A stretch of DNA of 64,000 bases. Origin: an uncultured Clostridia bacterium. GTDB taxonomy: Bacteria > Bacillota > Clostridia > UMGS1883. Positions within the stretch are counted from its first letter, which is position 1. Every line of letters begins with the position of its first letter. The DNA lies in assembly GCA_934454525.1 (NCBI GenBank), contig CAKSFM010000002.1, forward strand, positions 73,792-137,791, given 5' to 3'. Shown piece by piece: positions 51,669 through 55,511 of the stretch. Made by a program: the position numbers and the translations under genes. Under the pieces are notes generated by a model, which was not told the origin of the DNA, made no database searches, and worked only from the letters and a program-made list of their open reading frames with translations.

Positions 51669-51712
51669 AAAAAAGAAGTTACTTTCTTTTGTAGAAAATA
51701 ACTTCTTTTTTT
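51669..51712. terminator. Bidirectional terminator at the left edge of the AT-rich islet
   Basis: AAAAGAAGTTA...TAACTTCTTTT stem with an A-run before and a T-run after. Confidence 0.7.
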
Positions 51713-51766
51713 ATACTATATTATTCTTATGCTTTCTCAGATTATATCTCATTAGGAGATGTTTAT

Positions 51767-52951
51767 TTACCAATTCCTGTCCTCATATGGTGTATTTAAT
51801 ACACCATCATTATTTAGCCTTTTGACCATTTTATCAAGTTTGCCGCGCCACAACTTCTTAAACCAAGTTGTATTGCCAAACCATTTTACAAGCGTAGGAC
51901 TTATTGCGTAGTATGTATGTATAAACGCTCTGCCGTGCCAAGTTTCTGCAAGAGTATAATCACGATAACGGCGAAGTGTCCATACTTGAGGACAATCGTA
52001 TGAGCCATAAACACAAGTTGCAACATAACAGCCCTCTTTGGGTTTATAAGATTGTAAACAACTAAAAACTTCCCAATGTTCTTTTTTCCATTGTTCAGAT
52101 GCCGAAATTTCACTAACAGGGCAACCTTTAAATGCCAACGAGTTTATCTGACTAACACTGTCGGGTATAGTTAACTTCCGTAAATTACTGCATCCACGAA
52201 AAGCTCCACTGTCAGAGCCATAACGACTATAATAGTAATCAATTACTTCAAGCCCTTCAGGGAAAACCACTTCATACAAACTTTTACAATTATGAAATGA
52301 GGATTGTCCTATTTTTTTTAATCCTTTGGGCAATTCCACATTAGATAACAAAGTACACCCATCAAATGCATCGTCAGCAAGACTTTCTAATGTACCTTGA
52401 AATGCTGTATGTTTCAAGTGCTTGCACCACTTGCAGACTACCGAATTAACTTTTCTTGGAAATATAATTTCTTTTATCCCCAAATTGCATAAATATACTT
52501 CTTTTATATTATCATTTAATTTTAAATTAGATAATTTTTCAGCATTAGATAAATGTAAAATCTCTAGTGAATTTGGCAAGGTTAATTCTTTTAGATTTTC
52601 ACACTCTCTTATCGCAAATTCAATAACTCCTTCTGGTATATTTATCTTTTCAATATACTTACTACACCCATCAAAAGCATCTACTCTGACCTCTTTTACA
52701 TTATCAGGAATAGATATAATTGTTGAATTACCGTTATATTGCGTTAAAATTCCACCTTTTACAACAAATTCCTGTGCATTAGAAAATACATTAATAACAT
52801 CTGCTTTTATATTATTTGTTGTGTTATAATTGTTGATAGCCTTTTCAACTATAAAAGGTGTACCGCAGAATTGACAGATTGCCGCATCCTTTGAATTGTC
52901 AATCTCTAAATTCGCACCGCAGTTAGTACATTTTGCTTGAACTAATGCCAT
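51767..52951 (-). CDS. Zn-ribbon / BspA-type leucine-rich-repeat protein with a conserved Cys-rich C-terminal domain
   Basis: N-terminus CTNCGANLE...CQFCGTPF (zinc ribbon). The middle has LRR_5-like repeats (IPD.V..V...AF.GC..., LP.GLKKIGQSSFHNCKSL, IPDSVSQINSLAFKGC). The C-terminus reads GCYVATCVYGSYDCPQVWTLRRYRDY...YYAISPTLVKWFG. GAGGGAG RBS upstream. Confidence 0.7.
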   Translation of the reverse strand: MALVQAKCTNCGANLEIDNSKDAAICQFCGTPFIVEKAINNYNTTNNIKADVINVFSNAQEFVVKGGILTQYNGNSTIISIPDNVKEVRVDAFDGCSKYIEKINIPEGVIEFAIRECENLKELTLPNSLEILHLSNAEKLSNLKLNDNIKEVYLCNLGIKEIIFPRKVNSVVCKWCKHLKHTAFQGTLESLADDAFDGCTLLSNVELPKGLKKIGQSSFHNCKSLYEVVFPEGLEVIDYYYSRYGSDSGAFRGCSNLRKLTIPDSVSQINSLAFKGCPVSEISASEQWKKEHWEVFSCLQSYKPKEGCYVATCVYGSYDCPQVWTLRRYRDYTLAETWHGRAFIHTYYAISPTLVKWFGNTTWFKKLWRGKLDKMVKRLNNDGVLNTPYEDRNW

Positions 52952-53093
52952 TCATATCTCCCTCATTTCCAATAATCTTTTTTCTCATTCAAAAATGTTT
53001 TATGCTTTGTTTCATTCCGTTTATCGACCTCATTCACATAATCACTTCCAGCACTTGATGTAATTATCCGTAAAGTGAAAACTACAAGAAGTA

Positions 53094-53747
53094 TTATTTT
53101 ACCGGTCCTATTGTTGTTACAAAGAAATGTATCAGCGATAAACCATATTCGTCAAAATCAGGAATGAGCAAATTTTGCATATCAGACGAAAGCTCCGTCA
53201 GTTTTTCATCAATTTGAAAAATGTTGATTTTATTTTCTCGGATATAAGTTGAAAGATAGGTCTTAAACCTTGTCATCAGAAATGCTCTGAATTTTTGCGT
53301 CAGTCCTGCTTGTGTCAAGCCGTTCTCTGTTCCGACTACTTTAACAAGCAGCTTTTTCCCGTCTTTTACACGCAATGTCATTTCTCCGCTTGCGCCTATT
53401 TGAATAGGGAAATTATATGTAGGCTCGACATATTCAACTTTGCTGTCCGTACCCCATTTGACAGCCATTTGCTCCGTTTTGTTTATGAAATAAACCTCGC
53501 AATGGAACGGCGTTTGATTATCAAACGGGTTGTTAAAAAATTTTCTGATAAGCGGTATGTTTTGTGTTTCGAGTGTGTGTCTGCCGGCTTCAAATACATC
53601 TAAAAGCTGACCGTTCATATAAAATACAGCTTGCTGTGATTCGTGAACGATAAGCTGCGTTTGTGTATTGAAGTCCTCGCAAGGGTGTTTCCATATAAAA
53701 GTGGAATTATCGCCCTCATATTTAATTACATTTGCAATTTGCGGCAT
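53094..53747 (-). CDS. SPFH-domain protein (COG4260 / YdjI-like 'virion core protein' family), short form lacking the usual C-terminal Zn-ribbon
   Basis: 217 aa. VIKYEGDNSTFIWKHP.EDF....QLIVHESQQAVFYMNG...DVFEAGRHTLETQNIPL pattern matches my memory of YdjI-type SPFH proteins. GGAGG RBS upstream. Confidence 0.7.
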   Translation of the reverse strand: MPQIANVIKYEGDNSTFIWKHPCEDFNTQTQLIVHESQQAVFYMNGQLLDVFEAGRHTLETQNIPLIRKFFNNPFDNQTPFHCEVYFINKTEQMAVKWGTDSKVEYVEPTYNFPIQIGASGEMTLRVKDGKKLLVKVVGTENGLTQAGLTQKFRAFLMTRFKTYLSTYIRENKINIFQIDEKLTELSSDMQNLLIPDFDEYGLSLIHFFVTTIGPVK

Positions 53748-53769
53748 TTTGCTTTTCCTCCCCCACTAT

Positions 53770-53793
53770 TGTCAAAAAGTGTACCTTTTGACA
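53770..53793. promoter_or_regulatory. hix-like recombination site A (TGTCAAAAAGT-GT-ACCTTTTGACA)
   Basis: Two 11-bp inverted half-sites around a 2-bp core GT. It lies 22 nt upstream of the SPFH ATG. Confidence 0.6.
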
Positions 53794-53915
53794 CCAGCCT
53801 AATTCAAGCGAAAAAGGAGATAACAAGCAAAAAATCTCGTCTTTTTTCTATAAAATATTGCTTTTTACCAAAATATGTGCTACAATTCAAAACATAAGAA
53901 TGACTGTCAAAAGGT
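53783..53915. other. Putative invertible DNA segment (promoter inverton), about 134 bp between crossover cores
   Basis: Bounded by sites A and B, whose cores (GT / AC) are reverse complements. Contains a sigma-70-type promoter. Confidence 0.55.
53858..53886 (+). promoter_or_regulatory. Sigma-70-type promoter inside the invertible segment (currently pointing away from the SPFH operon)
   Basis: TTGCTT, 17 nt, TACAAT on the + strand. An overlapping weaker face-to-face candidate lies on the - strand (TTGAAT, 17 nt, TAAAAA). Confidence 0.5.
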
Positions 53916-53928
53916 ACACCTTTTGACA
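53905..53928. promoter_or_regulatory. hix-like recombination site B (TGTCAAAAGGT-AC-ACCTTTTGACA)
   Basis: Perfect 11-2-11 palindrome, extended to 38 bp (53898-53935). It abuts the recombinase stop codon at 53930-53932 and may double as its terminator. Confidence 0.6.
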
Positions 53929-53929
53929 G

Positions 53930-55511
<1,582 letters not shown>

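Follow-up and report, generated by a model that had tools for sequence, protein, structure and literature searches.

A truncated SPFH gene and a zinc-ribbon LRR gene behind a hix-like switch: probable remnant of a common operon of gut Clostridia

The closest characterised system and the intact operon

The SPFH protein YdjI (SamI) of Bacillus subtilis is soluble, and its membrane localization requires YdjG and YdjH (PMC8581546; PMC13713150). This PspA-YdjGHI/SamGHI membrane-stress module is the closest characterised system to a pair of genes in an uncultured Clostridia bacterium of the lineage UMGS1883. The pair lies in a stretch of 64,000 nucleotides (the window; GenBank assembly GCA_934454525.1, contig CAKSFM010000002.1, positions 73,792 to 137,791). 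One open reading frame (ORF) codes for a short SPFH protein, the other for a protein with a zinc ribbon (ZnR), BspA-type leucine-rich repeats (LRR) and a CFI-box tail. The pair is very probably the remnant of an SPFH/four-transmembrane (4-TM)/ribbon operon of gut Clostridia, left after a deletion of ~0.87 kb and located behind a hix-like switch.

Comparison with relatives exposed a very common operon of gut Clostridia coding for a Band_7_1 SPFH protein, a small transmembrane (TM) protein and proteins with an N-terminal ribbon (N-ribbon). SamGHI is its only studied relative. The operon with a Band_7_1 SPFH has at least 545 relatives among species genomes. The loci L169, L170 and L012 have, behind a divergent helix-turn-helix gene, genes for an SPFH-ZnR protein of 416 aa (94.8% identical to residues 1-213 of the window protein), a 4-TM protein of 141 aa, a Zn-ribbon-LRR-CFI protein of 422 aa and a Zn-ribbon-TPR-TIR protein of 560 aa. 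The ancestral layout, common in gut Clostridia, comprises three to five genes and is kept intact in L169/L012 and L088. Its first gene codes for a Band_7_1 SPFH protein (~415 aa), the C-terminal part of which has a coiled-coil-like region followed by a Gly-rich segment and double zinc ribbons; its second codes for a small membrane protein with 4-5 TM segments. The third and later genes encode proteins with a TFIIB/A2L-like N-ribbon, a variable module (LRR, TPR-TIR or helical repeats) and, in many cases, a CFI-box end. The 4-5-TM partner has 141-250 aa in relatives and no Pfam match. The C-terminus of the SPFH protein is not uniform. The first-pass annotation of the window had stated that COG4260/Band_7_1 proteins usually end in a zinc ribbon. 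This holds for YdjI of B. stercoris and the near relatives of the window protein, with DZR/Zn_Ribbon_1 at the C-terminus; many relatives of ~377 aa terminate in SHOCT rather than in zinc ribbons.

Gene order was counted in 66 species-genome loci with at least 3.5 kb downstream of the SPFH gene. An ORF with at least three TM segments follows SPFH directly in 64 of these, and in 59 at least one downstream ORF opens with a CxxCG...CxxCG zinc ribbon. The TPR-TIR seed (TIR_2 domain) was matched in 38/66 loci, and a CFI-box protein is carried by 15/66. The Zn-ribbon-TPR-TIR paralogs of the intact operons match TIR_2 with E 1e-11 to 1e-13, and the (S/A)xWVKNEW glutamate motif is present in all 51 TIR ORFs. 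Synteny of the two window genes was found elsewhere in part: they occur together in L169/L012 and in L008, with the 4-TM gene between them, and a full Zn-ribbon-LRR-CFI gene otherwise stands alone, adjoining SPFH in one of 14 cases and located away from any SPFH gene in 13. The LRR-CFI genes P0002 and P0006 sit among housekeeping genes. SPFH, TM protein and ribbon protein, in this order, thus form a conserved operon, and the LRR-CFI protein is one of many interchangeable occupants of the third slot, usually encoded elsewhere.

Some fusions are unusual. L102:8617-10299 encodes a Zn ribbon, TPR, TIR, EF-Tu domain 2, an L7/L12 C-terminal-like domain and a CFI-box in one protein, and L120:7149-7967 a Zn ribbon, TPR, an L7/L12-like domain and a CFI-box. 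SPFH-TM-TIR operons were also observed in metagenome-assembled genomes (MAGs) labelled Victivallales/Lentisphaerae (L115, L161, L165, L167), with SPFH proteins 67-71% identical to that of the window. Their presence there suggests that the operons were transferred horizontally from Clostridia or that the bins are contaminated.

The YdjGHI comparator was the B. stercoris locus, fetched via a published primer. YdjI/SamI and the intact Clostridial SPFH proteins belong to the same family (PF13421; 23% identity over the full length, E 1e-16) and share the order of SPFH domain, low-complexity Gly/Met-rich stretch and C-terminal zinc ribbons. Both operons encode an integral membrane protein and a protein opening with a TFIIB-like zinc ribbon; YdjG starts with MIISYKCPNCG. 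The Clostridial operon is reversed in comparison to ydjGHI, with SPFH first. Its ribbon proteins are soluble or have TIR, LRR and CFI modules, which YdjG does not have. The window copy differs further from the YdjI system by the loss of the SPFH C-terminal half and of the membrane gene.

A deletion between the SPFH gene and the LRR gene

The first-pass annotation had described two co-oriented ORFs with strong ribosome-binding sites (RBSs), a gap of 142 nt and no signal peptide, and all of this was confirmed. The SPFH ORF has the RBS GGGGGAGG, 9 nt 5' of its ATG, and the LRR ORF has GAGGGAG, 6 nt 5' of the ATG. A Kyte-Doolittle scan found no hydrophobic N-terminus or TM segment in either. The SPFH ORF is above the gathering score of Pfam PF13421 (Band_7_1; 7e-39, 134.1 bits, cut-off 24). 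The match spans residues 27-213, corresponding to profile positions 12-193 of 211. In the LRR ORF, Pfam identified LRR_5 (8.5e-33) and a weak A2L zinc ribbon.

SPFH homologs with 70-99% identity are nearly all 370-436 aa long. P0128 is 99% identical to the window SPFH up to ...LIHFFVTTI. The window protein ends there with FFVTTIGPVK and a stop codon; P0128 reads FFVTTIVKPEDD... and has ~200 aa more. Beyond the shared part, P0128 goes on with VKPEDDSTYKRF... and a stretch resembling a coiled coil, and then has a Gly-rich segment and three ribbons of the form CxxCG...FCxxCG. Full-length relatives run on as ...FFVTTIVKPEDDSTY... to 413-436 aa. Residues 1-213 of the window SPFH are homologous to them, and the last four codons (GPVK, then stop) are out-of-frame junction sequence. 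All 80 genome matches align to query residues 1-213/214 only. The C-terminal low-complexity region and the zinc ribbon(s) of L169, L008, L088 and YdjI are not present in the window protein, which stops at residue 217.

The nucleotide alignments locate the missing part. The contig L008 holds the recombinase 3' end, both hix-like sites, the SPFH gene, the 4-TM gene and the first codons of the LRR gene (MALVQAKCTN). By blastn, window positions 54134..53108 correspond to L008 1..1062 and 53097..52920 to L008 1948..2122. The 886 bp of L008 that are unmatched in the window encode the SPFH C-terminal half and most of a 145-aa four-TM protein. The ~0.87 kb missing from the window is present in L008, L088 and L169. 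The spacer, read in another frame, matches residues 101-144 of the 4-TM protein (tblastn, 86% over 44 aa, E 6.7e-22), and blastn aligned it to the ends of the 4-TM genes in L008, L088, L169 and L003. A deletion of ~0.87 kb thus explains the short SPFH ORF. It joined codon 213 of SPFH to the final ~44 codons of the 4-TM gene and removed the SPFH coiled coil, the Gly-rich segment, three DZR-type ribbons and most of the 4-TM gene. An identical junction was found in L006, L007, L176, L177 and L178, hence in at least six assemblies with the window included. Because the same junction recurs across these five other samples, it is a real allele, fixed in this species, and not an assembly error. No hix-like sequence was found at the deletion junction, and a deletion made by the recombinase was rejected on this ground.

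The most suitable description of the SPFH ORF is a truncated remnant, and its annotation should read 'truncated'; the spacer is best described as the relic of a gene. The split or re-shuffled architecture proposed in the first pass was not borne out by these data: a 0.87-kb deletion separates the window from its relatives, the SPFH and LRR-protein ribbons differ in type, and the N-ribbon is invariant in its family. The apparent split of domains is ordinary gene decay. A pseudogene had also been considered, with a spacer that belongs to an intact fusion in relatives. This came close to what was found, the spacer being a relic of the 4-TM gene. A false lead is removed: what looked like a new arrangement of domains is the scar of a deletion.

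Among relatives, the SPFH gene was damaged independently in four further cases. L001/L010 have the closest LRR homolog (79% aa identity), and the LRR gene is intact. Only remains are located upstream: a hix-like site, the last SPFH ribbon in degenerate form (62% over 47 aa) and a damaged 4-TM gene that has lost an internal stretch between two ATACTYT repeats. The SPFH gene of L008 has a TAG at codon 20, and that of L094 a TAA stop. In L003-5, a -1 frameshift in a T7 run distinguishes SPFH from that of the intact L089 in the same genomic context. The T7 loss was present in three independent samples (L003/L004/L005:6620) and splits SPFH into 213 + 203 aa; the run may be a slippage hot spot. An SPFH split in L133 coincides with a run of N and was rejected as a lesion.

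The LRR-CFI gene is intact and under purifying selection. In comparison to L001, the ratio of non-synonymous to synonymous rates (omega) is 0.24 overall, with 0.15 for the ribbon, 0.32 for the LRR and 0.12 for the CFI part. The gene differs from that of L006 by 3 nt. In comparison to L169:7001-8269, the synonymous divergence (dS) of the LRR core is saturated (~2.5), and that of the ribbon and CFI ends is ~0.6. This pattern suggests that the LRR core is swapped by recombination between constant ends. The SPFH stump has an omega of 0.03-0.06 against intact relatives and zero differences to L006. Because of this identity, the deletion is considered recent.

The LRR/CFI-box protein and the putative upstream switch

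The LRR protein starts with MALVQAKCTNCG..., a zinc ribbon of the TFIIB/A2L/RRN7 type with a 14-residue spacer, followed by an EKAINNY helix. Its C8, C11, C26 and C29 are invariant across 55 family members (alignment A1), and the ribbon is invariant in the LRR-CFI family with or without an SPFH gene nearby. SPFH ribbons are of another type, DZR/Zn_Ribbon_1 with CxxCG-x7-8-FCxxCG. TIR and helical-repeat paralogs in the same operon slot open like the LRR protein (M..KCKMCGG..., MKQLTCEMCGG...).

The C-terminal tail was described in the first pass as recurrent, conserved and without known function, and this was substantiated. It is the NCBIfam domain NF041770 (CFI_box_CTERM), with 70.7 bits versus a cut-off of 40; residues 308-376 cover model positions 1-69 of 69. 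The tail has many Trp, Tyr, Arg and Lys residues, and its signature is C-[FY]-[IV]-A-T-x-x-Y-G-S ... LRxxRD ... YYxxSP. C308 is invariant in the alignments of full-length proteins (A1) and of tails (A2); C320 is invariant in A1 and nearly so in A2. At E <= 1e-3, a profile of the tail matched the representatives of 26,775 protein clusters; at E <= 1e-30, it matched 2,556. Among the 150 best matches, in proteins of 138-807 aa, the CFI-box ends 0-5 residues from the C-terminus. Tails with 78-99% identity follow LRR_5, Ank, TPR, Sel1, L7/L12-like and TerD modules, among others. In a sample of 54 CFI-tail proteins, about half start with a ribbon and none has a signal peptide. The family of the LRR protein is very large and has no assigned function. 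NF041770 comes without an attached function, structure or paper, and a literature search on the CFI-box found no paper; one on Band_7_1 found a single relevant mention, in a preprint.

The AlphaFold2 (AF2) model of the full protein, with a predicted local distance difference test score (pLDDT) of 87.4, has four short ribbon strands and a helix at 35-43; residues 43-59 form a disordered linker to the LRR solenoid, and the C-terminal domain is helical. The CFI-box modelled alone forms a four-helix unit (pLDDT 85.7, predicted template modelling score 0.74). The structural search proposed in the first pass gave a divided answer: Foldseek assigned the LRR part to the BspA type (4gt6, 4fs7, 4h09 and TpLRR 6mlx; E 2e-8 to 6e-6), and the CFI-only model had no fold analogue in the PDB (best E 8.6). 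The sequence profile of the tail had no PDB relative below E 0.1. BspA-type LRR structures have the same solenoid over the central 225 residues of the window protein. They are annotated as cell-surface or secreted proteins; the window protein is without export signal and is capped by a ribbon and a CFI-box, and the Kyte-Doolittle scan showed no signal peptide, lipobox, wall or membrane anchor on it. The CFI-box here caps cytoplasmic-looking proteins that start with a zinc ribbon. The domain, present in ~27,000 protein clusters and modelled with confidence as four helices, is without a counterpart in the PDB or in the literature found. Knowledge of the ligands of ribbon and CFI-box would assign roles to thousands of hypothetical proteins from the gut microbiota of humans and ruminants. 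It would also put to the test the idea that SPFH scaffolds of bacteria organise TIR and LRR proteins on the membrane. A phage origin was also considered. Phage records contained LRR-level matches only, apart from one CFI-like match in a Clostridioides phage-plasmid and one weak SPFH match. With nothing comparable in these records, a phage origin was rejected.

The cargo was predicted to lie behind a switch, and a hix-like invertible segment does adjoin a recombinase gene (Table 1), the product of which is the candidate invertase. A Resolvase-family recombinase and two inverted sites with complementary core dinucleotides are present, as in invertons. The sites are 24-bp palindromes in inverted orientation and 96% complementary; the core GT of one is the reverse complement of the AC of the other. 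The plus strand of the segment has TTGCTT (53858-63), 17 nt and TGcTACAAT (53878-86), a promoter-like core that faces away from the SPFH gene and is conserved in the segments of L088 and L008. A consensus promoter scan did not list this promoter, the -35 element of which matches 3/6 only. Assembled contigs of the window, L006, L008, L088 and L176-178 have the segment in the same orientation, which would be the OFF state. The locus shares with Hin/hix and Gin/gix a small resolvase-family recombinase, two ~24-bp palindromic inverted sites and a promoter-bearing segment. Unlike Hin/hix, one orientation was seen in assemblies, and two site pairs are without an adjoining recombinase. These pairs are located directly 5' of intact SPFH operons (L088:5799-5959 and L140:5807-5976) and are likewise hix-like 24-bp sites with GT/AC cores. 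This arrangement implies a trans-acting invertase and repeated capture of the SPFH operon by invertons.

The recombinase-proximal site is palindromic and forms, together with its flanks (53896-53937), a hairpin with a 19-bp stem, followed on either strand by T runs. As the segment is now oriented, transcription from its promoter would enter this hairpin and continue antisense to the recombinase gene. Between 54532 and 54781, the longest ORF for the recombinase (283 aa, TTG 54781) overlaps the yitT 3' end and a terminator hairpin; the Resolvase domain begins at residue 87 of this ORF. The typical recombinase N-terminus and the resolvase domain start at ATG 54532; gene callers on other contigs predicted 227 or 238 aa. 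NCBIfam gave weak matches to the Mpi/XisF type.

Table 1. Coordinates of the features of the locus in the window.
Feature	Position	Strand	Basis or remark
217-aa SPFH ORF	53094..53747	minus	3'-truncated Band_7_1 gene
394-aa Zn-ribbon/BspA-type LRR/CFI-box ORF	51767..52951	minus	intact gene
N-terminal C4 zinc ribbon and helix (residues 1-43)	52823..52951	minus	alignment A1, AF2 model
LRR_5 solenoid (residues 61-285), variable part	52097..52771	minus	Pfam PF13306, 113 bits, 3 stretches
CFI-box C-terminal domain (residues 308-394)	51770..52030	minus	NF041770 6.5e-20; AF2 domain model
Deletion junction	53098..53110		...ACAACAATAG joined to GACCGGTAAAATAATAC...; base-level alignments
Relic of 4-TM gene 3' end (...ILLVVFTLRIITSSAGSDYVNEVDKRNETKHKTFLNEKKDYWK, stop)	52966..53097	minus	tblastn/blastn; nearly whole 142-nt spacer
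Hix-like site, cargo-proximal	53770..53793		minus strand TGTCAAAAGGT AC ACTTTTTGACA; 22 nt 5' of SPFH start
111-bp invertible segment	53794..53904		promoter-like core read by eye
Hix-like site, recombinase-proximal	53905..53928		minus strand TGTCAAAAGGT GT ACCTTTTGACA; inverted repeat I2
Small serine recombinase, 200 aa from ATG 54532	53930..54532	minus	Pfam Resolvase 1e-25
Hairpin terminator between recombinase and yitT	54579-54624		
Bidirectional hairpin terminator	51669..51711		inverted repeat I5, 19 nt, 95%; closes cargo and convergent 229-aa gene

Function, rival readings and setting of the locus

By analogy with YdjI/SamI, the ancestral SPFH-4TM pair may be a membrane-bound scaffold, with the proteins that have an N-terminal zinc ribbon as possible clients or adaptors. 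The stump of SPFH probably has no function. The only intact cargo is the LRR-CFI protein, probably a cytoplasmic binding protein that is expressed only when the switch flips. It probably works alone, with a variable LRR face and a constant ribbon. The constant aromatic and basic four-helix CFI tail could be a docking or membrane-interface module, which is a guess. Several observations weigh against the remnant reading or its functional part. The scaffold/client model is an analogy only. The likeness between the YdjG ribbons and the ribbon of the window LRR protein is weak (E 4e-4 and 9e-4), and YdjG matched locus ORFs at the ribbon level only (phmmer, best E 1.6e-4). The Clostridial 4-5-TM protein is not homologous to the TPM-domain protein YdjH, for which phmmer found no match in locus ORFs. 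PspA (B. stercoris query, phmmer) had 0 matches in the fetched loci, ~6 kb on each side, and no pspA is encoded in the window region 47-58 kb. With 13/14 full Zn-ribbon-LRR-CFI genes apart from SPFH, any physical link would be conjectural. The nonsense lesions of L008 and L094 rest on one metagenome contig each. The start codon and the strong RBS of the stump are preserved, its SPFH domain is nearly complete (profile 12-193 of 211) and its sequence is unchanged against L006, so that a residual role is conceivable.

Three rivals concern the window pair itself. That the C-terminal zinc ribbon of SPFH moved to the start of the next gene has next to no probability. It would account for an SPFH protein without its ribbon followed by an ORF that opens with one, but the two ribbons are of different types, the N-ribbon is invariant whether or not SPFH adjoins, and intact relatives (L169, L012, L008) have both. 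A phase-variable operon for a surface protein (adhesin), as is usual for BspA-type LRR proteins, is very improbable. Invertons classically control surface structures, and the best Foldseek matches are annotated as cell-surface LRR proteins of gut bacteria, TpLRR and PcpA. The window protein, though, starts with a four-Cys zinc ribbon and has no visible signal peptide, lipobox, TM segment or wall anchor. In paralogs, the same ribbon precedes TPR-TIR and then TM helices, implying a cytoplasmic ribbon with the N-terminus inside, and signal peptides are absent from all 54 sampled CFI-tail proteins. A selected two-gene module of 217-aa SPFH and LRR-CFI protein, with an adaptive deletion that brings the LRR gene behind the switch, is less improbable, yet we doubt it. 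The arrangement is fixed in all contigs found for this species (six assemblies), both ORFs are open with strong RBSs, and the stump has a low omega against intact relatives. This omega, however, reflects mostly history before the deletion, with no substitutions since the split of the window and L006. The stump ends in four out-of-frame codons and has neither a membrane partner nor the region that, as in HflK/C and flotillin, would oligomerise the SPFH protein. Moreover, the L001 lineage retained the LRR gene and lost SPFH entirely. The pair is better read as the remnant of the larger operon.

The rival that concerns the ancestral operon is an anti-phage or conflict system, of which the window would keep one phase-variable LRR-CFI sensor. 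The repeats would recognise the invader, and TIR or CFI-box would be the membrane effector. This is unlikely, although not to the degree of the three readings above. It would fit the slot after the 4-TM gene, which holds swappable proteins with constant ends and variable LRR, TPR, Ank or Sel1 modules and L7/L12-like or EF-Tu-D2-like inserts. The saturated dS of the LRR core between conserved ends and the recurrent loss-of-function lesions in the near clade agree with it, as do TIR_2 in 38/66 loci and the glutamate motif in 51/51 TIR ORFs. Inverton control recurs in the window, L008, L088 and L140, and the ~70%-identical SPFH of Lentisphaerae MAGs suggests transfer. Thoeris ThsB shares TIR_2 and a conserved Glu motif with the Zn-ribbon-TPR-TIR paralogs. 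Against this stand the defence searches and the neighbourhood. PADLOC (PADLOC-DB 2.0) had no family match for three proteins of the window, SPFH and LRR-CFI protein included, and none for the intact SPFH, 4-TM, LRR-CFI or CFI proteins of relatives. TIR paralogs reached E 3e-5 with ThsB and 5e-6 with ThcB4, with scores 10-fold under the family cut-offs, and there is no ThsA-like partner. The inspected neighbours are EF-P, argininosuccinate lyase, ABC transporters and ger genes, and not defence islands. The operon is also very common, with its 545 or more relatives among species genomes. The window has no TIR gene, and its copy is without TIR domain or recognised effector. That the parent operon serves conflict rather than envelope homeostasis is accordingly given a low probability. 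An extended version is slightly less likely still. In it, proteins with N-ribbon, hypervariable module (LRR, TPR, Ank, Sel1, decoy-like EF-Tu-D2/L7-L12 inserts) and CFI tail, the SPFH/4-TM scaffold and a membrane-anchored Zn-ribbon-TPR-TIR protein would together make up an immune or conflict system of gut Clostridia that is new and associated with the membrane. Its CFI-box would be an effector or docking domain of a new kind, phase variation would be of the hix type, and the window would be a sensor-only survivor.

The G+C content is 29-39% across 51.5-54 kb of the window and ~48% in the flanks. The distal end of the cargo varies by strain. L179/L180, which carry the 229-aa gene, leave the window sequence just past 51665 and continue with unrelated AT-rich sequence. 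The LRR-gene contigs L006/L007 from the same two samples end at 51751. In L181:1060-1140, from another sample, an identical 229-aa gene is followed by half a hix-like site and by the portion of the invertible segment that contains the promoter (inverted, 93% to window 53914..53855), with a tRNA gene and mntP next. This stretch is without LRR gene, SPFH gene or recombinase, and its arrangement may be a recombinase-mediated rearrangement or a second inverton.

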